Origin: an uncultured Novosphingobium sp.
Lineage (GTDB): Bacteria > Pseudomonadota > Alphaproteobacteria > Sphingomonadales > Sphingomonadaceae
Direction: 5' to 3'
NCBI GenBank assembly: GCA_964609325.1
Contig: CAZSTP010000002.1
Span: 4,984 to 68,983, forward strand
DNA length: 64,000 nucleotides
The position numbers and the translations under genes were made by a program. Shown here one piece after another: positions 18,594 through 31,332 of the stretch (positions within the stretch are counted from its first letter, which is position 1; every line of letters begins with the position of its first letter). The notes beneath the pieces were generated by a model, which made no database searches, had not been told where the DNA came from, and saw nothing but the letters and a program-made list of their open reading frames with translations.

Positions 18594-18719
18594 TCTGACC
18601 CCTCTGCCCCCTCTGCCCCCTCTGCCCCCTCTACCCAAATAATAAAGAAAAAGTAATTCAGATAACGCTGACTACTCTTTATTGGGTAAGGGGGTCAGAG
18701 GGGTCAGAGGGGTCAGAGG
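18594..18719. repeat. Inverted 9-bp iteron arrays flanking an AT-rich core (putative replication origin)
   Basis: Left array: TCTGACCCC, TCTGCCCCC x3, TCTACCC (18594-18636). AT-rich spacer. Right array: GGGGTCAGA x3 (18691-18717). Lies immediately downstream of the primase-helicase stop at 18724. Confidence 0.8.
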
Positions 18720-18723
18720 CTGG

Positions 18724-21090
18724 TCACCCACCCTCCTCCGTCGCCGCCGCACTGGGCGAAGTCTCGAACAGCGCAGCCTCTTTTCCGGCGACGTCCACGC
18801 GGGCGATTTCTGCGCGCAAAGCTGTGATGTCGGCGTCCTTCCAAGCGGCACTATTTCGCACAGCATATGCGGTGACCTTCTGCCGGAACCCACTTGGCGT
18901 AGGCGTTTTGAAAGTCCGAAGCTGGACCAGACCGGCGCGTTGCAGCGCATAACGTTTGGCAGAACCGCGAGGCCGCTCCTCACCCATGGCCGTGTCGATC
19001 TCTTCGGACGTGATAACATCCACCGGCCAGTGCGCGGCAATATCGAATGCCACCTGTTCGCTGTCCGAACGAACCCGCGCCAAAAGGTTTGTCTTCGCCG
19101 CAGTCATGGGCGCCCTCATCCCGGGCTTGAACGACGAGATGTCCCGCTGCCGGAGGAACTCGGCCACAGATGCAATGAACACCGGATCGTCGCGCAGGCG
19201 ATAAAGGTCCCAGTAGTAGGCATCCGGCCTCGGATCGTCGTCGCACCGCACGACAACGAAGCGCCTGTCGGCATCTTCCAACGGGATAGCCGCCTCGCTG
19301 TTGGAAAAAATCAGCCAGCGGCACGCGTTCCACTCCACGTGTTGGCGTCCGTACTTCGGGTTGATCGTCCGGGTCTCTTCGGTAACGAGCTGCTTAAGGT
19401 CCTGCTGCATCTGATACTTGCGACTGCCATCGCCCTCGTCGATCTCGTCCACCACCGCGAGCAACTTTCCCGCCAGTACGCCATTGTAGCCGTCACGCAG
19501 CGTCCGGCCCAATGGAAACGACAGCGCCGCGTAGCCAACGAAGATGCGTCCGAGAATAGACGAGATGAGATTACGCCCCATGCCGGTTCGCGGCGCAATG
19601 TGGAGGAAGGCGATAGACGGCAGTTCGCCCGGCTTCTGCACCGCATGGGCGACCCAGTCCAAGAACAATGCTGTCTCAGCACCAAACAGCCACTCCACAT
19701 GGTCGATGAACGGCTGCGCCCAACGGTCCCAGTCGGCTGGTGGCGTGGTGGCGCGCAGCCCCCGCCACGTGTTCAGCGCGTTCCTGCCGTCGGGTGCTGA
19801 GGTTACGACCCCTGCACCCGCCCGAAAGGTTTGCGTAGCGACCGTGCGCCTTGTCGGGTTAGCCAACCATGCCTCGGCAAGCTTCTTGCGGATCGTACGT
19901 TTACCGCCGCCGCGAACCGACACTTCGGCCACGAACATGGAGGCGGCGGTGCTGACCTTGAAGTCGGCCTGCGACAGCACGTGACCCGGCCTTGTGGTGT
20001 CGGCGACCTGCGAGCCATCTTCGATCAGAACGCAGTCGCGCAGCATGGCGTCCAGCGACCAGATTTTTGTCTTGTCAGTTGGCCCCTCGGCGACGGCCAG
20101 ATCACGCTCGCGCTCCCGTTCATGCTTGCGGGCATGCATGGCAACTTCATCATCGCTCAGCGCCCGCTCAATCGCTCGACGGGCTGCGCGCTCCGGATCG
20201 GCTTCGTCCAGACAATGCGCGCTGATGCCGTTGACGCCGTTCAACAATACGCCCGCCACCTGCTGCTGCGTCAAACCTTCACGAAGGGCCTCGCAAGCGA
20301 AATGGAACACATCCTTGCTGCGATCCATCCCGTCGGGCTCCTCGATGATGCGCCGCAAGTAGCTTTCCTCCGGCAGGCCAATGTCGTCGGCTGTTAGCAA
20401 CTGTACGTCGCCCAACGCGACACTGGCACGCGCTACTTGTGCCTTCTCAGCGGGCGGCGGGAAGGCCACCTGCAACTGCGACACGTCGCTGACTGTGCCG
20501 TCGTCGGGTACATAGATGCATGACAACTTAGCTTTTCGCCCAATGCTGCGCTTGCGCTCGTCCGGCCAGTTGATAGTGCCCGGTACGCGAAGCAGGCGCG
20601 ACGCGTCGTGTGTGCCCGTGTCGCCGCCCAGAGCCTTGATGAGGCCACGGTTGATCGCCTCGACCTCGTCGACGCTGACGCCCTTCGTGAGCCGCCAGAG
20701 GCCTTGCCAGCCGTTTCCAGACCAATTGATGGTGCTAGGACCCGCCGCCTCCAACCGGCTATACGCGGCCTCGCCGTCTTCCGTTGTGAATGCCGCGCAC
20801 CCCTTGGGGGGATCGATGTCGACGTGGGCGAAACGGACGCCGATGACGTCTGCCTTGGTCGGTTTCGCGTTCACGCCGTCGCACACGCGATTGACTGTGT
20901 AGTAGACGTTGAAGCCTTCAGCGTTCTTTTCCGAAGCCCATACAACTGCAGCGTTGACGTCTGTGCCGAAGTCTTTGCCCTCGGGGGGGCGCTGCTTCTT
21001 TGGATCGATGACTGTCAGGTGGATCTGCTCCGCTATCGTTTTTTCGAAGAACTCACGGACATCGTCTGATTTCTGCTCGGGGGCGCTCAT
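18724..21090 (-). CDS. Primase-helicase: N-terminal RepB-like (AEP) primase, C-terminal DUF5906/NrS-1-type helicase
   Basis: Primase motifs VYYTVN, HVDID, SGNGWQGLW, DASRLLRVPGT, DRS. Helicase motifs GMGRN (atypical Walker A), VVDEI (Walker B), INPKY, IFSN. Confidence 0.82.
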   Translation of the reverse strand: MSAPEQKSDDVREFFEKTIAEQIHLTVIDPKKQRPPEGKDFGTDVNAAVVWASEKNAEGFNVYYTVNRVCDGVNAKPTKADVIGVRFAHVDIDPPKGCAAFTTEDGEAAYSRLEAAGPSTINWSGNGWQGLWRLTKGVSVDEVEAINRGLIKALGGDTGTHDASRLLRVPGTINWPDERKRSIGRKAKLSCIYVPDDGTVSDVSQLQVAFPPPAEKAQVARASVALGDVQLLTADDIGLPEESYLRRIIEEPDGMDRSKDVFHFACEALREGLTQQQVAGVLLNGVNGISAHCLDEADPERAARRAIERALSDDEVAMHARKHERERERDLAVAEGPTDKTKIWSLDAMLRDCVLIEDGSQVADTTRPGHVLSQADFKVSTAASMFVAEVSVRGGGKRTIRKKLAEAWLANPTRRTVATQTFRAGAGVVTSAPDGRNALNTWRGLRATTPPADWDRWAQPFIDHVEWLFGAETALFLDWVAHAVQKPGELPSIAFLHIAPRTGMGRNLISSILGRIFVGYAALSFPLGRTLRDGYNGVLAGKLLAVVDEIDEGDGSRKYQMQQDLKQLVTEETRTINPKYGRQHVEWNACRWLIFSNSEAAIPLEDADRRFVVVRCDDDPRPDAYYWDLYRLRDDPVFIASVAEFLRQRDISSFKPGMRAPMTAAKTNLLARVRSDSEQVAFDIAAHWPVDVITSEEIDTAMGEERPRGSAKRYALQRAGLVQLRTFKTPTPSGFRQKVTAYAVRNSAAWKDADITALRAEIARVDVAGKEAALFETSPSAAATEEGG

Positions 21091-21341
21091 GACGCACCTA
21101 CTGCGCGCAAGCCGCCCAATTGCATGGCCTTCCGAAGATACGGCGCTGACGCCTCCGCTAACTCATGCGACAAGTCCTCAATTTCCGCCCACGGGGGAAG
21201 CGTGGGATACCAACGATAGCCCACAGTATGGTGGCCGTCGTTTTCGCGAACCAAGATCTCAACAGCGTACTTGGGCGTAATACGAGCGCGGCCTCGCATG
21301 ACGGCACGGTGGTGCTCATCGTTGATATAGGCTATATGCAT
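21087..21341 (-). CDS. Small hypothetical protein of the mobile element
   Basis: ATG 21341 behind GGAG; its stop overlaps the primase start (ATGA). Confidence 0.55.
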   Translation of the reverse strand: MHIAYINDEHHRAVMRGRARITPKYAVEILVRENDGHHTVGYRWYPTLPPWAEIEDLSHELAEASAPYLRKAMQLGGLRAVGAS

Positions 21342-21352
21342 GTCAGGTCTCC

Positions 21353-21395
21353 AAGGGGCGGTGTCGGTTGGGCCTGCACCGCCCCTTTTCATTTT
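21353..21395 (+). terminator. Hairpin with a T-tract on the strand antisense to the element genes
   Basis: AAGGGGCGGTG-N13-CACCGCCCCTT followed by TTCATTTT on the plus strand. Confidence 0.5.
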
Positions 21396-21410
21396 GGATT
21401 GTGCGGCTGG

Positions 21411-21626
21411 TCAGGCTACGCTTTGCGCTGCGCTAACGGCGCTGGTTGACGACACGAGGCGGCTTTCCAGCCAGCTGTCGAGATCGTTGCGGCGGTAGCG
21501 CACAGCTCCGCCAAGTTTCGCGAAGAACGGGCCTTCACCCGTCAACCTAAACCGCTCCAAAGTGGGCTTTCCGAGACGCACATACTGCGCCGCCTCGGTC
21601 GTCGTCATGATATCGGTGGTCATCAT
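21411..21626 (-). CDS. AlpA/excisionase-like helix-turn-helix protein
   Basis: 71 aa; MTTTEAAQYVRLGKPTLERFR...GP.F.KLGGAVRYRRNDLDSWL. Confidence 0.88.
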   Translation of the reverse strand: MMTTDIMTTTEAAQYVRLGKPTLERFRLTGEGPFFAKLGGAVRYRRNDLDSWLESRLVSSTSAVSAAQSVA

Positions 21627-21722
21627 CGGTTGCCTCCTATCTGTTTGGCAACCACTTCTCTTAATCAGGCTTTTTCGGAAATATACGCGAGTTATTTGCG
21701 CAAAAAATTCGCGTTGCCTGTA

Positions 21723-22283
21723 TCACTTCCCTCGACGCGTACCCGGGTCGCGCCGGGGCACCCTATCGAGGTGTTCCTTTAGTGCGTTTAGTTGCTCAGG
21801 GTTGGCCTGTGCCCATGCTGCCCCCATTTCAGTCAATACATGAGCCTCGGGGCCCTCCTTCACGTACTTTGCCCGCCCTTTCGAGACCGTCGAAGCCTTG
21901 CCAGCGTACCCTGCCTCGGCACCGACGGCGTTGGCGGTGATATTGTAGGCTTCCTCGGAGCCTATACCCAACGCACCTTGAAGAAACGCCGCATTTGGAT
22001 GAGCAACGCGTTCGGTGAATTTCGTCATGACCTTTGTCGGAAGCGCACCCGGCCCGTCAAGCCGACGCAACGCAACCCGTGCCGCGAGAACCTGTATCGT
22101 TGTCGGCAACGGCACGCCCTCACTGGTCAGCCTCCAGACCATAAGGTCCACCCAGTTGTCATCTTCGTCTTTGACGAATTCGTCTATATGCTCGAGCATC
22201 TCAAGGCCAAGCGCTGTACCTGCAAAAACTCCCAGCTCGCGCTCCAACTGCTCGACCAATGTTTCTCCTTGCCTTTCAGTCAT
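21723..22283 (-). CDS. Hypothetical protein, translationally coupled to the integrase
   Basis: ATG 22283 overlaps the integrase stop (ATGA); 186 aa with no motif I recognise. Confidence 0.6.
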   Translation of the reverse strand: MTERQGETLVEQLERELGVFAGTALGLEMLEHIDEFVKDEDDNWVDLMVWRLTSEGVPLPTTIQVLAARVALRRLDGPGALPTKVMTKFTERVAHPNAAFLQGALGIGSEEAYNITANAVGAEAGYAGKASTVSKGRAKYVKEGPEAHVLTEMGAAWAQANPEQLNALKEHLDRVPRRDPGTRRGK

Positions 22284-23587
22284 GCCCGTACCTCCAGCCG
22301 CACGATATTCGTCCGGTTTATAACGGCCTTCAGCCCCTCGACATGGGCAGACCATGCCTCCAATGCGCTGCGTTTCTCGGCAGCCCAGTCGTGGCGCTGG
22401 TAGACACCGGCCACGCCGCCCTTTGCACCGCTCACGTGGTTTAACACTGCCTCCGTTACTTCGAACCGAACGCCCAGCCTTTGTAGGCCTGTAGCCACCG
22501 TGCGCCGCAGGTCGTGTACTCGCCAATCTGGTAGCGTGCCTCCATCGTGCGCAGCAGCGATTGTATCGTCCAACGCCCGCTTCGCCTTGCTGAAGCCAGA
22601 AATAGAGTTCCTGCCCGTGGTAGTAAGGACATAGCCATTCTGCGGCCACTCACGGCCACCAGCCAAGCCATCCAGTTCCGCAATAGCAGCCTTCGATAGC
22701 GGTACAATGTGAGCGCTCCCGTTTTTTGCCCGATGGGCTGGGATGGTCCATACGCCAGCGCCACGGTCAAGTTCTGCCCAACAGGCACCCGCAACTTCCG
22801 ATTTGCGCTGCCCGGTTAGGATTAGCAGCCGATATAATGGCCCCCACGGCGCGGACAGGCTTTCGGAGGCAGTCCAGACAGACAGCAATTCTGCGTCCTC
22901 CAGCACTCTGTCCCGCGCGGCTGGCGCCTCAGGCTTGTCCATGGACAACAAAGGGTTTGCCGAGACGTACCGGCGCTTCATCGCCCAATTAAATAAGACA
23001 GAGGCATACGCAAACACGTTGCGGCGCATGGCGCGTTGCTGAACCGGGATTGCGTCAATAACAGCTTGAAGATCCGCATACTCGATGTGCGGCATGGGTT
23101 TGGTGCCCAACGCAGGCTTCAGGTGCCGCCTCACGACCATCTCTGCCATGTTCACGCTTGACGGCCTTCGGCCCTTCTCTAGCTCGTAGTGCTGCAGCCA
23201 AAGATCGGCCAACCGAGTGAACGCAAGATCAGCCTCGACGCGCTCCCGCTCTTGACGCTTGCGCACAGCCTCGTCCTTCGCTGCCAGTAACTCTGCTTCC
23301 TGCTCGCGCGGATCTGTGCCTGCCGCGACCATAGCGGCCAACTCCTGAGCCCGCTTGCGCGCTTGATCAGGCGTTAGTTCGCCGTGCCTACCGATAGTGT
23401 ACTTCTTGGGAGCCGTCTGAGATGCCTGCCCTCGCCGGGCTATGCGGTATCGATATAGATATACCTTGCCGCCCGCTGGAGTGACTTTCAAGCCGAAGCC
23501 CGGCAAACGATCATCCCAATAGGTCTCGTCACGATCGCTCGGCTGGACGCCATCGACAGAAACCTTGCTGATCTTGATCTTCGCCAT
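22280..23587 (-). CDS. Tyrosine recombinase/integrase with N-terminal arm-DNA-binding domain (P4-like)
   Basis: N-terminal YWDDRLPGFGLKV; catalytic residues appear intact: TGQR, HDLRRT, LNH, GVY. Confidence 0.95.
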   Translation of the reverse strand: MAKIKISKVSVDGVQPSDRDETYWDDRLPGFGLKVTPAGGKVYLYRYRIARRGQASQTAPKKYTIGRHGELTPDQARKRAQELAAMVAAGTDPREQEAELLAAKDEAVRKRQERERVEADLAFTRLADLWLQHYELEKGRRPSSVNMAEMVVRRHLKPALGTKPMPHIEYADLQAVIDAIPVQQRAMRRNVFAYASVLFNWAMKRRYVSANPLLSMDKPEAPAARDRVLEDAELLSVWTASESLSAPWGPLYRLLILTGQRKSEVAGACWAELDRGAGVWTIPAHRAKNGSAHIVPLSKAAIAELDGLAGGREWPQNGYVLTTTGRNSISGFSKAKRALDDTIAAAHDGGTLPDWRVHDLRRTVATGLQRLGVRFEVTEAVLNHVSGAKGGVAGVYQRHDWAAEKRSALEAWSAHVEGLKAVINRTNIVRLEVRA

Positions 23588-23618
23588 AGCAACCTTCGCT
23601 CTTACGCCTGCACACCTC

Positions 23619-23640
23619 AGGCATCAGATAGGCATCAGAT
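23619..23640. repeat. Tandem 11-bp direct repeat, probable integrase arm-type sites
   Basis: AGGCATCAGAT twice, exact, between the integrase start and the att core. Confidence 0.6.
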
Positions 23641-23741
23641 CAGATCATAGCAACGACAATTTCCGATACTCTGGGATAACAAGATCGTAGGTATTTAGGC
23701 AATTTCCTAAAAATGATGCTAGCTACACACAGTTATGCCAG

Positions 23742-23789
23742 TGATTTGTAATCAGGGGGCCAGGGGTTCGAATCCTCTAGCCGGCACCA
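23742..23789 (+). pseudogene. 3' fragment of tRNA-Thr(TGT), probable att site
   Basis: TGA-TTTGTAA-TCAGG, T-arm AGGGG-TTCGAAT-CCTCT, acceptor 3' strand AGCCGGC-A-CCA. No 5' acceptor strand or D-arm upstream, and the anticodon stem pairs over only 3 bp. Confidence 0.85.
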
Positions 23790-23811: not shown

Positions 23812-24951
23812 CTATTTCCAGATCGCGCGGGGCATGCGGAAAGGCAGCATTCCCTGCACAATGGTTGAACGGAACCGGTTGAGCGACAGGCTTTCATGCA
23901 CCGCTTCGACATTCTCGCCAAACAGCCGCGTCGAAAGCTTTGATCGCGCATAGAACGGGGCATCGACCCAGGTTTTGGCGACACGCGGCACATATCCCCG
24001 GTCAGCCCGGGTAAGGCGTTCGATCAGCCACGCGCTGCGGGGCAGACGTGCCGGGGCGGGCTGTTCGATATCGTGCCAGTTGCCCATCCGATCCAAACGC
24101 AGCGCCAGATCGAAAGGCGTGCCATCGCGCCGCTTGCCTTCGTAAAGCACCGCCACATCATTGCGCAGATGCGCACGCGACCAGTGCCAGTCGTTGAAAC
24201 CGTCTTCCAGCGCCTCATCGCCAAAATTGGAATCGAAATAGCCTGCGCCCGACCAGCGTAGGCCCGGGTCTGTCATCGAGACCTCGACATGGGCGCGCGG
24301 TGCCACGGGATGCCAGCGATGACGCCCTTCGGGATCAAGCGCAAAGGCCGTGTCGCCGATCATTTCGGGGCGCACCCGGATCGTGCCGCGCACTTTGTAG
24401 GGCAGCGGGGAGGAAACCTCGGCAATGTCGATCACCAGTGTTTCACCGTCCCAACGCATGGCGCTGGGGCCGACCGAGAAATGGTGCTTGGCACGATCAA
24501 CATCGCGCGCGGTACGCTCTGTCATCGCCCAAGCCGATCCGCGCGGACCATTGAGTGATATGTTGATGGCGCAATGGTTGTCGGGGCTGTGTCGCCCGCT
24601 AAGCTTGTAATACGGCGAAAAAACGCTGCCGACAAAGGCGATCACCGTCAGGCCATAAGCACCATCTGCACTGGTCGCATCAATATACCACCAGGCGTAG
24701 CCCCCCGGCGCAACCGCGCAATCAAAGCGTGGCCCTTGAGCCACCATACGGCGGCTGGTCGGACAGCGGACATAGGGCTCCTCACTTTGACGCAGCAGCA
24801 TCCAGGGATCCGTCGCCCGTTGGGGCGCGGGTTCGAGCACGCCGCCAACACGGGCAAGGCCGGTCCACAACGGGCTCCACCCTTCCAGAGAAACAGGCTC
24901 GCGTCGGACCGTCCGTGCAGCGAAATCGTGTTGAGCATAGTGCGCTTCCAT
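23812..24951 (-). CDS. crtC: Carotenoid 1,2-hydratase (hydroxyneurosporene synthase)
   Basis: GGYAWWYIDA, IAFVGSVFSPYY, HRWHP, GYFDSNFG, WHWSR, APFYARS, HESLSL.RF. Start uncertain (24951 or 24747). Confidence 0.85.
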   Translation of the reverse strand: MEAHYAQHDFAARTVRREPVSLEGWSPLWTGLARVGGVLEPAPQRATDPWMLLRQSEEPYVRCPTSRRMVAQGPRFDCAVAPGGYAWWYIDATSADGAYGLTVIAFVGSVFSPYYKLSGRHSPDNHCAINISLNGPRGSAWAMTERTARDVDRAKHHFSVGPSAMRWDGETLVIDIAEVSSPLPYKVRGTIRVRPEMIGDTAFALDPEGRHRWHPVAPRAHVEVSMTDPGLRWSGAGYFDSNFGDEALEDGFNDWHWSRAHLRNDVAVLYEGKRRDGTPFDLALRLDRMGNWHDIEQPAPARLPRSAWLIERLTRADRGYVPRVAKTWVDAPFYARSKLSTRLFGENVEAVHESLSLNRFRSTIVQGMLPFRMPRAIWK

Positions 24952-25057
24952 GTCCCGTTCCCCGCTCCAGCCATTCCATTGGCAACGCCTGACGACGGAC
25001 GATAGCCCGCACAGCAATGGCACCTTGCTCAAACGCCCGTTGACGCCATGCCGACTA

Positions 25058-25101
25058 TGTCCATTTTATTGGACATATACAACTGTCTAAATTTTTGGAT
25101 T
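25058..25101. promoter_or_regulatory. Paired PpsR/CrtJ-type boxes upstream of crtC
   Basis: TGTCCATTTTATTGGACA (25058-25075, TGT-N12-ACA), an 8-bp spacer, then degenerate TGTCTAAATTTTTGGATT (25084-25101). Confidence 0.75.
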
Positions 25102-25169
25102 ATGAGTCCGGTTATCATTGCGCAATTCTCATCGCTTGCCGCTGATGATGCGCCCGTTGCGCAGGGTTC

Positions 25170-26309
25170 CTATGGAGCCCCGTCCTCGTACCAACCCACA
25201 TCACGCGTGGCGACTTCCCCAAATGGCACCCGCTCGGCCATGGCCATGCGCAGGATCGGCCATGAGGTGAACATCATGCTAAGGAACGGCCAGGGATCGG
25301 ATGAATCCCAACTCACATCGCGCGTGGTGAACAATCGGGCAAGTTGGTCTTTGAAACCCTTGCGACGGAACATGGCCAATTGGGCTTCGGTCAAGCAGGC
25401 GTAGAATTGTTGCAAGTGCCGTTGGGGACGGACGCGTACCATCGCTTTGCCCAAGGGATCAAGCACGGCGCGGGCGATATCCTCGGCTTCCCAGAAGTGC
25501 AGGCCGCTGGTGGCGCGGGGGTTGCATTCGATGCCCCACACTGTGCCCGTGGCATCGACGATGAAATCGAAGGCGATGAAACCGCTCCACCCCGATGCGG
25601 TCACAAATGCCTCGATCCACGCGCTGATTGCGGGGCTCTCGACGCGCTCGAAACTGATGGCGACCGAACCTGCCATCACCCTGCCCCGATACACCATCGT
25701 GGCCACCGCGCGGCCATCGCGCGCGATGGTGCAACTGCTGAATTCGTGCCCCGCGATAAAGCGTTGTGCGACAGCCGGGGCGGCAGGATCGGCCTCGGGC
25801 AGAGCCACGCCTTTCACCAAGATGCGCACTCCGCGTCCCGAACAGGAAAACACTGGTTTGACCACCACATCGCTGCCTTGAGCCAATGCGGAAGCCTCCG
25901 GTGTACCCAGAGCGTACGTTTCGGGCACCGTAAGCCCTATCGCCCGCGCGGCCTCGATAAACCCGGCCTTGTCATGCAGCGCGACCACCTGCTCGGGCGG
26001 CATCGTGAACACGCGGACGCCGGGACCGAAAAGTTCACGTGCATGGGCCACGTGCATGGTCTCTTCGGAAACCGGCACGACCAGCTCGACGCATTCATCC
26101 GCTACGATCTTTGCGATGGCAGCATGATAGGCTGCCTTGCCCGCGCTGGGCGGCGGCACTGCGAATTCGCGCGCGACATGGCGCGATGCTCCCGTCAGTG
26201 TCCGGCCAAACGGATCAGCCACCAGTACCCGGCATCCGGCGCGGCTGAAGCCCCTTGCCAGATCAAGCGCCTTGGGCAAGCGTCCCAGCGTCAGCAAAAC
26301 AGTAGTCAT
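25170..26309 (-). CDS. ATP-grasp fold enzyme
   Basis: Start ATG 26309 overlaps the P450 stop (ATGA). LVVPVSEE, HDK..F, VVKPVFSCSGRGV, QRFIAG.E, FDFI, IECNPRATSG. Confidence 0.85.
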   Translation of the reverse strand: MTTVLLTLGRLPKALDLARGFSRAGCRVLVADPFGRTLTGASRHVAREFAVPPPSAGKAAYHAAIAKIVADECVELVVPVSEETMHVAHARELFGPGVRVFTMPPEQVVALHDKAGFIEAARAIGLTVPETYALGTPEASALAQGSDVVVKPVFSCSGRGVRILVKGVALPEADPAAPAVAQRFIAGHEFSSCTIARDGRAVATMVYRGRVMAGSVAISFERVESPAISAWIEAFVTASGWSGFIAFDFIVDATGTVWGIECNPRATSGLHFWEAEDIARAVLDPLGKAMVRVRPQRHLQQFYACLTEAQLAMFRRKGFKDQLARLFTTRDVSWDSSDPWPFLSMMFTSWPILRMAMAERVPFGEVATRDVGWYEDGAP

Positions 26310-27754
26310 GGTGCCACGCGGCTGACCCGCACCATGATCTGCTGCGCCGGGCGCGTGGTAAGCCGGGCTGCGGGACGTACGGCTTGGGGTTTGATGATCT
26401 CGAAATCGAAGCGTCGGAACAGCCGCGCGATCAGCAATACAGCTTCGGCCTGCGCAAAGGCTGCGCCCGCACATACTCTCGGGCCAAGGCCGAAGGGTAT
26501 GTAGGCGCCCGGGGTGAGTTCAGCTTCGCGTTCGGGCAGGAAGCGGTCTGGATCAAAGCGGTGCGGATCGCGCCAATAGCGCGCGTGGCGGTGCAGCACC
26601 CACGGCGCGACCATGACCAAAGCGCCGCGCCGCACTTTGCGTTCGCCAATCGTGGTTGCTTCGGTGGCAACGCGCGGCAGAAAGGTGATCGGCGGGTAGA
26701 GCCGCAAGGTTTCGCGAAAGACGTTGCGGATCGTCGGCAACTGCTTGGTCATCTCGAACGTTATCGGCTGCGAACTGCCCGCCAAAGCATGGATTTCGGC
26801 GCGGGCACGCGCAACCAGCGCGGGTTGCATGGCCATCAGATAAAAGGCCCATGTCAGCGCACTGGCGCTGGTTTCATGGCCGGCCAAAAACAACACGCCA
26901 AGCTGGTCGATCAGCTCTTCGCGGGTGAAGGCGGTTTGCGTGAAGTCATCGCGCGCGGCGACAACGGCTGCGGCGATATCATCAAACCGTTCGCCGTCGG
27001 GGCCAAGATGGGTGTCGAGCAAATCCCCCAGATGGCGGCGGATCGTGTTGCAGGCAGCCAATACGCTCTCGCTTTGCGGAACCTTGGTCCATGCCGGGTC
27101 CATGATCAGGCGACGGATTTCCACTTGCGCCACGCTGTGCTCGAAGATCGTGAACGCATCGAACACATCATGCGCGGCCTGCGTTTCAAGGCCGGTGCTG
27201 AACACGGTGCGGCAGATGATGTCCGCCGTCAGATGGCTCATCGCCAGATCGAGCGACAGGGCGGTTTGTCCGCTTGCATGCCGATCCAGCATATCCTCGC
27301 AGGCCTGCGCCCCTTCCTCCATCGCCGGAAAGGCGCGGTTGACCCGCATCATGGTGAAGGCCGGATCGATCATCCGGCGCTGGCGACGCCAGGTATCGCC
27401 CGACGACACGAAGATCGAATCCCCGATGAGAGGCGCCAAAGCATCCACCATCAAATCGCTCTTGGGAAAGATGCCTTCAGGATCGGACAGCACGCGGCGC
27501 ACCTGATCGGGCCGGTTAACGATCAGAATCTGGCGGCGCGAATAGCCCAGCGGGCCAACCTCGTTGCGATAGGCATTCGCGGGCAAGAGGCTGAGCAAAT
27601 CGCCATCACCGCGCAGTGCCACACGCAGCAGCGCCAGCACCGCAGCGCTGGCCTTTGGCCGTGGCGGCACAAAGGCGCGCTGCGACGTTCCGGATGGCTC
27701 GCGGCGGTTTGCCGGAAGGGGTGCGTTTCGGGTCAAAAGATCATCCATGAGCAT
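26306..27754 (-). CDS. Cytochrome P450
   Basis: I-helix AGHETS, ETLRLYPP (ExxR), FDPDRF, heme motif PFGLGPRVCAG. ATG 27754 behind GAAGGG. Confidence 0.95.
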   Translation of the reverse strand: MLMDDLLTRNAPLPANRREPSGTSQRAFVPPRPKASAAVLALLRVALRGDGDLLSLLPANAYRNEVGPLGYSRRQILIVNRPDQVRRVLSDPEGIFPKSDLMVDALAPLIGDSIFVSSGDTWRRQRRMIDPAFTMMRVNRAFPAMEEGAQACEDMLDRHASGQTALSLDLAMSHLTADIICRTVFSTGLETQAAHDVFDAFTIFEHSVAQVEIRRLIMDPAWTKVPQSESVLAACNTIRRHLGDLLDTHLGPDGERFDDIAAAVVAARDDFTQTAFTREELIDQLGVLFLAGHETSASALTWAFYLMAMQPALVARARAEIHALAGSSQPITFEMTKQLPTIRNVFRETLRLYPPITFLPRVATEATTIGERKVRRGALVMVAPWVLHRHARYWRDPHRFDPDRFLPEREAELTPGAYIPFGLGPRVCAGAAFAQAEAVLLIARLFRRFDFEIIKPQAVRPAARLTTRPAQQIMVRVSRVAP

Positions 27755-27760
27755 CCCTTC

Positions 27761-27803
27761 AATCAACTAAACTTTACACCGTAATTGTCCAGTGCAATAG
27801 ACA
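27761..27803. promoter_or_regulatory. Paired PpsR/CrtJ-type boxes in the divergent P450 / DUF2306-crtD promoter region
   Basis: Degenerate AATCAACTAAACTTTACA (27761-27778), a 7-bp spacer, then TGTCCAGTGCAATAGACA (27786-27803, TGT-N12-ACA). Confidence 0.75.
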
Positions 27804-27824
27804 CTCGGGAAAGAAGGGGACGCC

Positions 27825-28586
27825 ATGGATCTGTTCTTGTTCCAATGCCTGATTGCCGCACACATCGTGGCCGGAGCGACAGGCGCGGTGGCGTTCTGGA
27901 TCCCGGTGATCGGCCGCAAGGGTAGCGTCAATCATCGCAAATGGGGCCGAGTGTTTACCCGCACGATCCTGTTCACCGGATGCCTTGCCGTGCTGATGAG
28001 CCTGTTTACGCTGGCCAATCCGATGGGCGTCCACCCTCACCTCGTCGGCCGCTTCGATTCCGGATTTGTGCGCGGCATCTTCGGCTGGATGATGCTGCAC
28101 AACGCGATCCTGACGATCAATCTGGCGTGGTACGGCTGGTTGTGCGTGATCAACCGCCGCAATGTTGCTGCCAACCGCACATGGCTCAATATCGGCCTGC
28201 AGTATGCGGTGATGATCGCAGCGGTGGTCTGTGCATGGGAAGGCGCGCAAATCAACCAGCCGCTGATGATGGCGATTGCCGCGGTCGGGATGGCCACCGG
28301 CATTACCAATCTGGTGTTCCTTTATGCGCGCAATCCCTCGCCGGTCGATTGGCTGAAAGAACATGTCAAGGCGTTGGTAGGGGCCGGTATCTCGGTTTAC
28401 ACTGCGTTTCTGGCCTTTGGCGCTGTGCGGCTGGCACCCTCGCTGGCGCTGCAACCGGCGATGTGGGCTGTGCCGCTCAGCGTGGGTCTGGCCATCCTGA
28501 TCTTCCATCGCATGCGCATCGATAAAGAGGCAGGACTGGGCCTGTTCCGGCTGCTGCGCCAACGGCAGACCGTCGATGCAGACTGA
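27825..28586 (+). CDS. Polytopic membrane protein, DUF2306-like
   Basis: RBS AAGGGG; about 6-7 hydrophobic segments; HIVAG...H.KWGRVF pattern. Family name from recall. Confidence 0.7.
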   Translation: MDLFLFQCLIAAHIVAGATGAVAFWIPVIGRKGSVNHRKWGRVFTRTILFTGCLAVLMSLFTLANPMGVHPHLVGRFDSGFVRGIFGWMMLHNAILTINLAWYGWLCVINRRNVAANRTWLNIGLQYAVMIAAVVCAWEGAQINQPLMMAIAAVGMATGITNLVFLYARNPSPVDWLKEHVKALVGAGISVYTAFLAFGAVRLAPSLALQPAMWAVPLSVGLAILIFHRMRIDKEAGLGLFRLLRQRQTVDAD

Positions 28587-28592
28587 CCTGCA

Positions 28593-30110
28593 ATGACACG
28601 CACGACACGCCGCGTTGTCGTGGTCGGGGCCGGTATGGGCGGGCTTGCGGCTGCGGCTGATCTGGCACGCAGCGGCGCCGCGGTCACCGTGATCGAGCGG
28701 GCGCAAACTTGCGGTGGCAAGATGCGCCAGATCATGGCGGGCGGCAGGCCGGTGGATGCCGGACCCACCGTATTCACCATGCGCTGGATATTCGAGGGCC
28801 TGTTTGCCGATGCGGGCGAAAGGCTGGACGACCATCTGGAACTGATCGCGGCGACAACTTTGGCGCGGCATGCTTGGCGCAGCGGCGGTACGCTGGATCT
28901 TTTTGCCGACATTGCGCAATCCGCCGATGCCATCGGCACCTTTGCCGGGGCAGACGAAGCGCGCGGCTATTTGGCCTTTTGCGCGCGCGGCAAAGATATC
29001 TACGCCACGCTGGCCAGGGACTTCATCGCCTCAGAGCGTCCGTCCGTGCCCGGTCTGGTGGCCCGGCTTGGCCTTGCCCGCCTGCCCGATTTGTGGCGAA
29101 CGATGCCGATGCGCACTTTGTGGGGCGCGCTCGGCGATCATTTCAAGGACCCGCGCCTGCGCCAATTGTTTGGCCGATATGCCACTTATGTGGGCGCATC
29201 GCCGTGGTCAGCTCCCGCCACCCTGATGCTGATCGCGCACGTTGAACAGAACGGCGTCTGGCTGGTCAAGGGCGGCACCCATCGTGTGGCACAGGCAATC
29301 CAGAGCCTTGCACAGCGCCAGGGCGCGCAGTTCCGTTTTGGCGTACAGATGGACCGGATCGTGATCGAGAATGGCCGCGTTGCCGGTGTTATGCTAGACA
29401 CGGGCGAGCGGCTGGATGCAGATGCCGTGGTCTATAACGGAGACATCTCCGCCCTGACCGCAGAGGAACGCCCGGTCCCGGCCACATCGCCCGCCGCACG
29501 GTCGCTCTCGGCTGTAACGTGGTGCCTTTCGGCGCGGACGACCGGGTTTGATCTGGCGCATCACAATGTGTTCTTCGCCGAAGACTATGCCGACGAATTC
29601 ACATCCATCTTTCGCCATCGCCGGATAACTTCCGCACCCACTGTCTATCTGTGCGCACAAGACAGGGGCGAAGGCAGTGCCCATCCGGAAGGTACGCCCG
29701 AACGCATGCTGGCGCTGATTAATGCCCCCGCCGACGGCGACCGGGCACCGCTTGATCAAGCTGCGATTGCCAATCTTGGCGCACGGGCCTTTGGCTTGAT
29801 GGAATCGTGCGGGTTGCAAATCGAGCCGGGCGATGATCCGACCGTGACAACGCCAACCGGGTTCGAGGCCCTGTTCCCGGCAAGCGGCGGCGCGCTCTAT
29901 GGCCGTGCCAACCATGGCATGATGGGGAGTTTTGCGCGGGCAGGAGCATCGGGCAAAGTGCCGGGGCTCTATCTGGCAGGCGGAAGCGTCCATCCCGGCC
30001 CCGGCATCCCGATGGCCACAATGTCCGGGCGCATCGCGGCCGCGCGTATGTTGGCGGATTGGGCAGGCAACCGCAGGACTGTCAGCATTCCTGTCGGTGA
30101 AGGCTTCTAA
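28593..30110 (+). CDS. crtD: 1-hydroxycarotenoid 3,4-desaturase (CrtI/CrtD family)
   Basis: VVGAGMGGL, GGKMR, DAGPTVFTM, FGRYATYVG, HHNVFF, GGSVHPGPGIPMATMSG (CrtD-like rather than CrtI-like); crtC is nearby. Confidence 0.82.
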   Translation: MTRTTRRVVVVGAGMGGLAAAADLARSGAAVTVIERAQTCGGKMRQIMAGGRPVDAGPTVFTMRWIFEGLFADAGERLDDHLELIAATTLARHAWRSGGTLDLFADIAQSADAIGTFAGADEARGYLAFCARGKDIYATLARDFIASERPSVPGLVARLGLARLPDLWRTMPMRTLWGALGDHFKDPRLRQLFGRYATYVGASPWSAPATLMLIAHVEQNGVWLVKGGTHRVAQAIQSLAQRQGAQFRFGVQMDRIVIENGRVAGVMLDTGERLDADAVVYNGDISALTAEERPVPATSPAARSLSAVTWCLSARTTGFDLAHHNVFFAEDYADEFTSIFRHRRITSAPTVYLCAQDRGEGSAHPEGTPERMLALINAPADGDRAPLDQAAIANLGARAFGLMESCGLQIEPGDDPTVTTPTGFEALFPASGGALYGRANHGMMGSFARAGASGKVPGLYLAGGSVHPGPGIPMATMSGRIAAARMLADWAGNRRTVSIPVGEGF

Positions 30111-30117
30111 CCCGCGA

Positions 30118-31332
30118 TCAGCGTGGCGCACCGGTTTGCGGCGGACGTTCGGGCAAGGTCAGCGGATTGAGCGCAGGCTCTCCCAATACCGTGGCGATGG
30201 CTTTGAAAAACGGCACGGGGGGTTTGCCGGTCAGCACCCGCAGGCGATCGGCCAAAGTTGATTTTCCGGCATAGAAGCGTTCGATCAGCGCGGCGTTCAG
30301 ACGGTAAAACCGTTGCAGCACGACATAGCGCAAATGGGGTGCAGCCGTTGCGAACAGCATCTTGGTCAACATGCGGTAGAATCCGCCTGCGCGCCAATGC
30401 TGCCCTGCCCAGCCCCGGCTCCACACTGCCAAAGCCCTGCCCGAAACATCCTTCTGCCGCGCCAGATCGAGCGCAAAGGCCAGTGCCAGCGGGAAGGAAT
30501 AGCCGGTCAACGGGTGCAGCAGACCGGCGCGAACGCCTGCCAGTGCAACGTCGGGCCTTTCATGCACTGCACGAAACGCCTCCCAGTCACCACTGCCCAC
30601 CACCGGCAGGCAACCGCTTTCCTCGCCCAGAATCTCGGCCACTTGCCATCCCGCATCGGCACAATAGGCGGCGATCCGTTCGCGCAGCAGTGGCGCGTCT
30701 ACTTCTGGCCCATCGGCATAGTAAGTGTCTTCGACGAAGACTTCGTTGGCAGAAAACGGCAAGCAATAGACAAAGCGATAGCCATCGTGCTGCGCCACCG
30801 TACCATCCATGACGATCGGGCGTTCCAGCCCATGCGGTTCGGCAGTGCGGACCAATTGGCCAAGGAATTTCTGCCATCCGCCCGCCATATGCGGCAAACC
30901 CGCCGAACCACGCGCATCAATCACCGCGCCAGCTTCAATCATGCGCCCATCGCCAAGCGTGATCCGGTTCGCGGTGACATCGGCAATCTCGCAGCCACAC
31001 AAGACCGCGTCTGCCGGCAGGGCACTGCGTACGGCGGCATCGAGCCGCGCGCTCGTGATGCTGTGATAAGGCGTGCGCAATTGACGGCGACCGCGCGGGA
31101 AGCGCACTTCGTAGTCATCCCACCGCGCCGCGATCAGCGGTTCAACCAGCGCGGTCCCGCCTTCGGGCAAATCTGTCGCAAAAAATGACCAGACATGATT
31201 GCCACCAAGCCGATCGTCGCGCTCTAGAACAAGCACGCGCAGTTCAGGCCGCAACCTGGCCAGCGCCAGTGCGATCAATCCTCCGGCGAGCCCCCCGCCG
31301 AGCACTGCAATGTCTGTGCCACGGTCATTCAT
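30118..31332 (-). CDS. crtY: Lycopene beta-cyclase
   Basis: GGGLAGGLIA, GGNHVWSF, QKFLG, RFVY.LP, EDTYY, HPLTGYS, RFYRL, RFYAG. Confidence 0.92.
   Translation of the reverse strand: MNDRGTDIAVLGGGLAGGLIALALARLRPELRVLVLERDDRLGGNHVWSFFATDLPEGGTALVEPLIAARWDDYEVRFPRGRRQLRTPYHSITSARLDAAVRSALPADAVLCGCEIADVTANRITLGDGRMIEAGAVIDARGSAGLPHMAGGWQKFLGQLVRTAEPHGLERPIVMDGTVAQHDGYRFVYCLPFSANEVFVEDTYYADGPEVDAPLLRERIAAYCADAGWQVAEILGEESGCLPVVGSGDWEAFRAVHERPDVALAGVRAGLLHPLTGYSFPLALAFALDLARQKDVSGRALAVWSRGWAGQHWRAGGFYRMLTKMLFATAAPHLRYVVLQRFYRLNAALIERFYAGKSTLADRLRVLTGKPPVPFFKAIATVLGEPALNPLTLPERPPQTGAPR

Follow-up and report, generated by a model that had tools for sequence, protein, structure and literature searches.

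The stretch of DNA analysed here (the window) comprises 64,000 nucleotides of contig CAZSTP010000002.1 (positions 4,984 to 68,983, forward strand) in the assembly GCA_964609325.1 of an uncultured Novosphingobium sp., and it carries the carotenoid genes crtC and crtD. Between these two genes lie an ATP-grasp enzyme gene and a cytochrome P450 gene, read in the same direction as crtC, and a membrane-protein gene, read in the direction of crtD. Two promoters, one upstream of crtC and one between the P450 and membrane-protein genes (the crtD-side promoter), each contain a pair of 18-bp boxes of the type bound by the photosynthesis regulator PpsR/CrtJ, one strong and one weak. The features of the locus are listed in Table 1.

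Table 1. Operators, predicted promoter and genes of the crtC-crtD region (window positions; ORF, open reading frame).
Feature	Position	Strand	Description
crtC, carotenoid 1,2-hydratase	23812..24951	-	NF045922, E=3e-92; ORF open to TTG 25032
crtC strong PpsR-type box	25058..25075	.	TGTCCATTTTATTGGACA, perfect 6-6-6 palindrome; holds -10-like TAAAAT; sequence read directly
Sigma-70-like crtC promoter (predicted)	25063..25091	-	-35 TTTAGA (25091-25086), 17-nt spacer, -10 TAAAAT (25068-25063)
crtC weak partner box	25084..25101	.	TGTCTAAATTTTTGGATT on +, AATCCAAAAATTTAGACA towards crtC; holds -35-like hexamer
ATP-grasp enzyme gene	25170..26309	-	PF02655, PRK06849-like; start overlaps P450 stop (ATGA)
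Cytochrome P450 gene	26306..27754	-	PF00067, E=1e-72; first in operon; start 6 nt from weak box
crtD-side weak partner box	27761..27778	.	AATCAACTAAACTTTACA; holds -35-like TTTACA (27773-27778)
crtD-side strong PpsR-type box	27786..27803	.	TGTCCAGTGCAATAGACA; overlaps -10-like AATAGA (27796-27801)
253-aa membrane protein gene	27825..28586	+	first gene of crtD transcript; DUF2306-like by UniRef naming only
crtD, 1-hydroxycarotenoid 3,4-desaturase	28593..30110	+	NF045637, 648.8 bits vs cut-off 580; 7 nt past membrane-protein gene
crtY, lycopene beta-cyclase	30118..31332	-	TIGR01789, E=1e-136; convergent with crtD; no box found upstream

Direct reading of the sequence bore out the positions and sequences of the double boxes given in a preliminary description of this DNA, together with their spacers of 8 and 7 bp. 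Read in the direction of crtC, the crtC operator is AATCCAAAAATTTAGACA-8-TGTCCAATAAAATGGACA, with the 8-bp spacer separating the weak from the strong box. Both strong boxes match TGT-N12-ACA exactly, and both weak partners take the form AAT-N12-ACA. The two strong boxes agree with each other at 14/18 positions, rather than the 13/18 first counted. A consensus scan of 24900-27900 returned the crtC promoter as its sole site, with 9/12 consensus matches; this prediction, a pattern match only, places the -35 element within the weak box and the -10 element at the centre of the strong box. On the crtD side, the P450 and membrane-protein genes diverge from a 74-bp gap, most of which is taken up by the pair with its 7-bp spacer, and 17 nt separate TTTACA in the weak box from AATAGA in the strong box. 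The crtC reading frame is open to TTG 25032; the conserved ATG 24951, and not this TTG, is most likely the start. Both this ATG and its GGAG-like ribosome site are conserved in relatives, and the 5′ untranslated region (UTR) would then be about 100 nt long. Contigs from one freshwater-sediment metatranscriptome covered 24700-24998, including the predicted crtC 5′ UTR, and 28343-28539 in the membrane-protein gene, a slight indication of transcription in the 5′ region of crtC and in the membrane-protein gene; the contigs in this dataset were few and gave no start sites for either gene.

The host organism is represented solely by a metagenome-assembled genome (MAG) from freshwater or runoff samples, a draft of 3.86 Mb in 657 contigs that is 91% complete. 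Its DNA was found in runoff, river and lake metagenomes, and among named organisms Novosphingobium sp. AAP83 is its nearest relative as judged by CrtD (96%). A search of the genome for ppsR, pufLM and bch genes, as the preliminary description had advised, recovered all of them; the phototrophy genes found were pufBALMC, puhABCE, bchCXYZ, bchFNBHLM, bchIDO, bchGP and acsF. RuBisCO large subunit (PF00016) and bchE (TIGR02026) had no match in the 91%-complete assembly. This gene content points to a Novosphingobium-like aerobic anoxygenic phototroph, as had been proposed from the window. A single copy of ppsR scored above the curated cut-off (TIGR02040, 365 bits vs 275; contig C369:986-2272), with ppaA adjacent and upstream. 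The encoded PpsR has an intact, conserved C-terminal helix-turn-helix with a Cys, which presumably corresponds to the redox-sensitive Cys of CrtJ/PpsR. When mapped with the proteins of the annotated N. capsulatum plasmid NZ_CP140001.1, the photosynthesis genes fell on contigs C30, C369, C77 and C134, the ends of which chain into one cluster. The bchF-ppaA intergenic region contains a tandem repeat of a 15-bp unit (CCAAATCAATCGGGC) at the end of C30 (~20990-21035) and at C369:1-55, and the break in the assembly between these contigs seems to be due to this repeat.

No copies of crtC and crtD other than those of the window are present in the assembly, and their 71-kb contig has no other photosynthesis-cluster genes, which agrees with the earlier claim that both genes stand outside the cluster. 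The absence of bch and puf genes, noted for the window, holds for the whole of this contig.

A motif scan upstream of the photosynthesis genes, also proposed in the preliminary description, revealed boxes of the same type at five promoters of the host cluster. These were bchC (TGTAAGCTCAACTTGACA, 8 bp, CGTCCAAACTGTTTGACA), crtF (TGTCCAATCTTTTTGACA, with CTTTACA 7 bp before it), bchI (TGTCCAGAGTATTGGACA), bchF/ppaA (CGTCAAGATAGATTGACA) and bchG (CGTCAAATTAATTTGACA), and N. capsulatum has this box type at the orthologous places. The cluster promoters gave the lineage consensus (T/C)GTC(C/A)A-N6-T(G/T)GACA, and the strong palindromes of the window operators are of the lineage-specific form (T/C)GTC(C/A)A-N6-T(G/T/A)GACA. 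The start codons of crtF and bchI lie 2 and 1 nt past their boxes (C134:1110-1131 and C134:5017-5036), and the same holds for bchI in N. capsulatum. This closeness suggests an operator over the translation start or, as we predict from it, leaderless transcripts. Elsewhere in the genome, a second crtY (50% identical to the window crtY) lies beside a crtI-like desaturase gene at C213:1100-3642, and no intergenic TGT-N12-ACA box was found on that contig. General carotenoid genes seem, as judged from box content, to lie outside the PpsR regulon.

The frequency of the motif was assessed in the window and genome-wide. The bare TGT-N12-ACA pattern occurred 11 times in the window, where 9.4 occurrences were expected, and 396 times in the genome, or once per 9.7 kb. 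These counts are those of chance, as had been anticipated for a lone TGT-N12-ACA (one every several kb), and the evidence is therefore carried by the extended motif and its placement. The 3.86-Mb genome has only 13 occurrences of the core GTCMA-N6-TKGAC, six of them at photosynthesis-cluster or crt promoters, that of crtC included. A weight matrix was trained on the six boxes of the host bchC, crtF, bchI, bchF and bchG promoters, with the window boxes excluded. Under this matrix the crtC strong box scored 23.3 bits, a value reached by 3 of 3.84 million positions (rank 3), and was the top non-training match genome-wide. The crtD-side strong box scored 13.2 bits, a score reached by 33 positions in the genome. 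The weak boxes scored 10.1 bits at crtC and 10.7 bits on the crtD side, values reached about once per 21 kb and 29 kb of the genome, respectively. When a strong box of at least 12 bits was required to have a partner of at least 2 bits at a spacer of 7-9 bp, five loci were found genome-wide against 0.44 expected: bchC, ppsR-bchG, the crtC promoter, the crtD-side promoter and one locus in AT-rich coding DNA, which was taken as chance.

Several high-scoring or palindromic matches were rejected as PpsR targets. Two matrix matches lay inside an AT-rich coding region (C524:733) and beside an integrase (C40:18305). The perfect palindrome TGTACCAAAATTGGTACA at C151:1812-1829 precedes a Phd/YefM-like antitoxin ORF by 23 bp and is probably the antitoxin system's own operator. 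That it nevertheless fits TGT-N12-ACA illustrates how unspecific the bare pattern is.

Conservation of both operators in orthologous promoters, another check that had been suggested, was found in 11 crtD-side and 12 crtC/crtF promoters. In the alignment of the 11 crtD-side promoter regions, the flanks have diverged, and the invariant positions were TC at positions 3-4 of the weak box, TTTACA, and GTCCA.TG..ATAG.C. The AAP83 crtD-side operator is TGTCCAGTGCAATAGACA. In more distant Novosphingobium, the upstream crtD-side box is a perfect TGTCATCTTATGTTTACA and the downstream box ends in TAGTCG; in the host clade, it is the downstream box that is now a perfect TGT-N12-ACA, the upstream one having decayed to AAT/ATT. 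Every Novosphingobium sequence in this alignment thus has one perfect and one imperfect box, a pattern that we read, from the alignment, as site turnover inside a cooperative pair. Other identities considered for the conserved crtD-side element did not fit on inspection. For a CarH/LitR-type operator (11-bp direct repeats with ACA), an IHF site (WATCAANNNNTTR), a CRP/FNR-type site and a promoter of an extracytoplasmic-function (ECF) sigma factor, either the spacing or the sequence was a misfit; the element has the 18-bp geometry of a PpsR site.

At crtC, 12 loci with cluster-located or relocated crtC retain the footprint TGTC.A....A.TGGACA and, at 8 bp, the GGACA-type arm of the partner; the AAP83 crtC operator is TGTCCAATAAATTGGACA. 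Comparison of these loci points to the origin of the window arrangement. The space between crtF and bchO, which holds crtD and crtC in N. capsulatum, is about 270 bp long and empty in the host. Other Novosphingobium retain crtC in the cluster, where it diverges from crtF. In such cluster-located versions, the opposite strand of the weak box encodes the beginning of crtF (ATG GAT ATG TCC AAT ...). A short relic ORF (MQLSNYSDF) is retained at the AAP83 crtC locus, with its ATG lost in the host genome, and homology with AAP83 stops exactly at 25101, the outer edge of the crtC weak box. From these alignments we infer that crtC moved together with its whole bidirectional operator. The divergent crtF-crtC pair and this operator would have been copied beside the ATP-grasp gene, and the crtF copy would later have been lost except for about 27 nt that form the crtC weak box, making this box a probable relic of the first crtF codons. 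In two complete chromosomes of other Novosphingobium, the crtD gene sits with the P450, ATP-grasp and membrane-protein genes 0.76-0.80 Mb from ppsR.

Of the two crtC copies in one related genome (G003), one lies, without crtF, in the cluster (L106) and the other is part of a divergent crtF-crtC pair inserted beside the ATP-grasp gene (L087). By its gene order, this genome looks like an intermediate state of the relocation. At the 3′ end of crtC, an integrase-bearing element (window 18594-23789) is present in the host and absent from this place in AAP83 (L086); on this side, homology with AAP83 extends 70 bp beyond the crtC stop, to window 23742. A search for a tRNA gene near crtC that could mark an integration site found none.

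Both window promoters have the same paired boxes as the host bch genes and would therefore very probably belong to the photosynthesis regulon. We consider it highly probable that the double boxes are PpsR operators that have kept crtC, the membrane-protein/crtD operon and probably the P450/ATP-grasp operon in this regulon. If the host works like Rhodobacter, Rubrivivax and Dinoroseobacter, each box pair would be bound cooperatively by a PpsR oligomer, which would shut out RNA polymerase when light or oxygen makes pigment synthesis dangerous. Repression would be relieved by the B12-binding antirepressor PpaA/AerR, encoded beside ppsR. The crtC gene and the membrane-protein/crtD operon would then be expressed together with bch and puf despite their location outside the cluster, and the P450/ATP-grasp operon would probably be co-expressed through the shared 74-bp intergenic region.

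This arrangement has close parallels in studied systems. In the CrtJ/PpsR pair at Rhodobacter capsulatus bchC, two close TGT-N12-ACA-type palindromes lie over -35 and -10 and repression occurs by occlusion; this layout recurs, with an 8-bp spacer, at bchC of the host. The window pairs differ from the R. capsulatus pair in having one degenerate partner (AAT for TGT) and in serving genes outside the cluster, and, unlike R. capsulatus, the host is a presumably obligately aerobic sphingomonad, in which light rather than oxygen would be expected to be the main signal. Exclusion of RNA polymerase by paired PpsR boxes has been described for Rhodobacter bchC and Rubrivivax pucB (PMC4452267). At the Rubrivivax gelatinosus crtI promoter, PpsR footprints a degenerate pair, (TGa-N12-ACA)-N8-(cGT-N12-ACA) (PMC4452267), so that degenerate arms, cGT included, have a precedent. 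The crtI pair resembles the window operators in belonging to a carotenoid promoter, in its 8-bp spacer and in its degenerate arms, and its cGT arm recurs at host bchC, bchF and bchG. It differs in coming from a betaproteobacterium and in controlling crtI rather than crtC or crtD; PpsR binding has been shown in Rubrivivax and is predicted in the host.

In the aerobic anoxygenic phototroph Dinoroseobacter shibae, PpsR boxes over -10 and -35 of the bchF/ppaA promoter mediate repression, which follows light, and the PpaA gene lies beside ppsR (PMC10890935), features that are shared with or expected in the host. The D. shibae boxes are inside the cluster, whereas those of the window are outside, and D. 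shibae has an extra LOV antirepressor, LdaP. The system directly homologous to the window crtC operator is the bidirectional operator between crtF and crtD(crtC) in the clusters of N. capsulatum and other Novosphingobium, which has the same layout of a strong box, an 8-bp spacer and a weak box over the first crtF codons. In the window, by contrast, this operator stands beside the ATP-grasp gene on another contig, and crtF is present only as a relic. The literature on sphingomonad carotenoids describes crtC, crtD and crtF as photosynthesis-cluster genes and places the other crt genes outside (PMC5989583). In the host, crtC and crtD are outside too, yet have cluster-type operators.

Several points weigh against assigning both operators to PpsR. 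Under the matrix, the crtD-side strong box ranks no higher than 33, and in most other Novosphingobium and in Acetobacteraceae it ends in GTC(G/A), not ACA. The conserved ATAGT of these relatives resembles a -10 element, so conservation of this box may in part be that of a -10 element (AATAGT) and not of PpsR contacts. Neither weak box has a TGT arm, and that of crtC can be explained as a decaying crtF relic. The status of crtC and crtD as only copies outside the cluster rests on contig content in a 91%-complete draft of 657 contigs. We infer that PpsR binds and in which direction it regulates, as well as where transcription starts and that the weak boxes have a function. In other species, PpsR homologues are activators at certain promoters.

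The preliminary description had also stressed the AAT-for-TGT deviation shared by the two weak boxes. The deviation is present in both, and it is only partly meaningful, because the crtC AAT was inherited from crtF and the crtD-side box has TGT in distant Novosphingobium. In the likeliest alternative, only the strong boxes are functional PpsR sites and a single palindrome over -10 suffices for repression. The crtC partner would then be a remnant of the 5′ coding sequence of crtF, and the crtD-side partner a -35 element (TTTACA) with AT-rich flanks. Such an arrangement, which would refine rather than exclude PpsR control, is somewhat unlikely. The crtC weak box does align with crtF codons 1-9 of the cluster-located versions, and the host has lost the ATG and one half-site base; its identity to AAP83 is 13/18 (hand count), compared with 83% in the surrounding block. 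Against a mere remnant, both weak boxes exceed 10 bits under a matrix blind to them, their spacing of 7-8 bp is like that of the bchC pair, and homology with AAP83 ends exactly where the weak box does. The host bchI and crtF promoters provide examples of one good box each, with partners differently placed or absent. On the crtD side, however, more distant Novosphingobium have a perfect TGT-N12-ACA as the partner, one perfect box is held by every aligned sequence from this genus, and PpsR binds paired sites cooperatively in the species studied (PMC4452267).

Two further alternatives concern the PpsR assignment as a whole. A different regulator might read these boxes across the entire sphingomonad photosynthesis cluster, a proposal we regard as quite improbable. 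GTCMA-N6-TKGAC, the lineage consensus, has a higher specificity than TGT-N12-ACA, several boxes that look functional start with CGT rather than TGT, and the searched literature contained no binding experiment on any sphingomonad PpsR. The geometry is nonetheless exactly TGT-N12-ACA, and cGT variants are footprinted by Rubrivivax PpsR (PMC4452267). The boxes also stand at classical PpsR targets, including the neighbourhood of ppsR itself, which is the sole annotated DNA-binding regulator gene in the reference cluster and a single-copy gene in the host. Chance occurrence of a loose palindrome in AT-rich intergenic DNA can be dismissed as next to impossible, for although plain TGT-N12-ACA is found at chance density and fits even the unrelated palindrome upstream of the antitoxin gene, the matrix rank, the rare paired layout and the conservation of boxes across 11-12 orthologous promoters with diverged flanks contradict it.

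The genes on either side of the crtD-side operator were compared across genomes. The module formed by the P450 gene, the ATP-grasp gene translationally coupled to it and the divergent membrane-protein/crtD genes (window 25170-30110) is syntenic in more than 70 loci (L004-L083) from several orders. Its hosts include Novosphingobium, Acetobacteraceae (Roseomonas/Falsiroseomonas), MAGs labelled Hyphomonadaceae, Hyphomicrobium/Anderseniella and Methyloversatilis. A ppsR match was present in 38/38 module-bearing genomes tested and was above the curated cut-off in 37. The Acetobacteraceae module is inside the photosynthesis cluster, where it abuts ppsR, and a further, classical crtD-crtC pair lies beside it. 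The classical CrtD of three Roseomonas/Falsiroseomonas loci (L101, L104 and L105) is encoded directly upstream of crtC and is 42-46% identical to the window CrtD. The presence of two CrtD paralogues in Acetobacteraceae puts the window CrtD in a distinct paralogue group, which provides the sole CrtD in the Novosphingobium lineage of the host.

The membrane protein of the module had been labelled DUF2306. The label was not significant in Pfam (E=0.72), and the protein had no significant Pfam or NCBIfam match at all; the name is given to relatives in UniRef, where its 1887 homologues are all either unnamed or called DUF2306. The searched literature held nothing relevant on DUF2306 with carotenoids or on a photosynthesis cluster with P450, ATP-grasp and crtD genes, and in the available part of the published transcriptome supplements of Sediminicoccus KRV36 the module was not seen in the photosynthesis cluster. 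We put forward tentatively, at somewhat less than an even chance, that the operator at 27761-27803 controls an uncharacterised pigment-tailoring module tied to phototrophy. This operator is the best current evidence, from sequence comparison, for the putative membership of the module in the photosynthesis regulon.

Collectively, these findings describe how a regulon can outlast the relocation of its genes. In this Novosphingobium lineage, crtC and crtD, which belong to the spirilloxanthin branch, moved out of the photosynthesis cluster and kept or carried PpsR-type operators, so that the photosystem carotenoid can still be produced in step with bacteriochlorophyll. The operator pair also illustrates site turnover, and the lineage consensus finds regulon members far better than TGT-N12-ACA does. 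This is a tidy and expected case, which adds a lineage consensus and a relocation history; it does not overturn the understanding of PpsR and would come as no surprise to a specialist. The conserved module, which among the genomes tested was found only in those bearing ppsR, is the lead with more novelty. The motif flags this module as co-regulated with the photosynthesis genes and provides a handle for finding its product. If the proposal is true, the module would make or modify a photosystem-associated carotenoid or other pigment by undescribed chemistry, beyond the mere relocation of spirilloxanthin genes.

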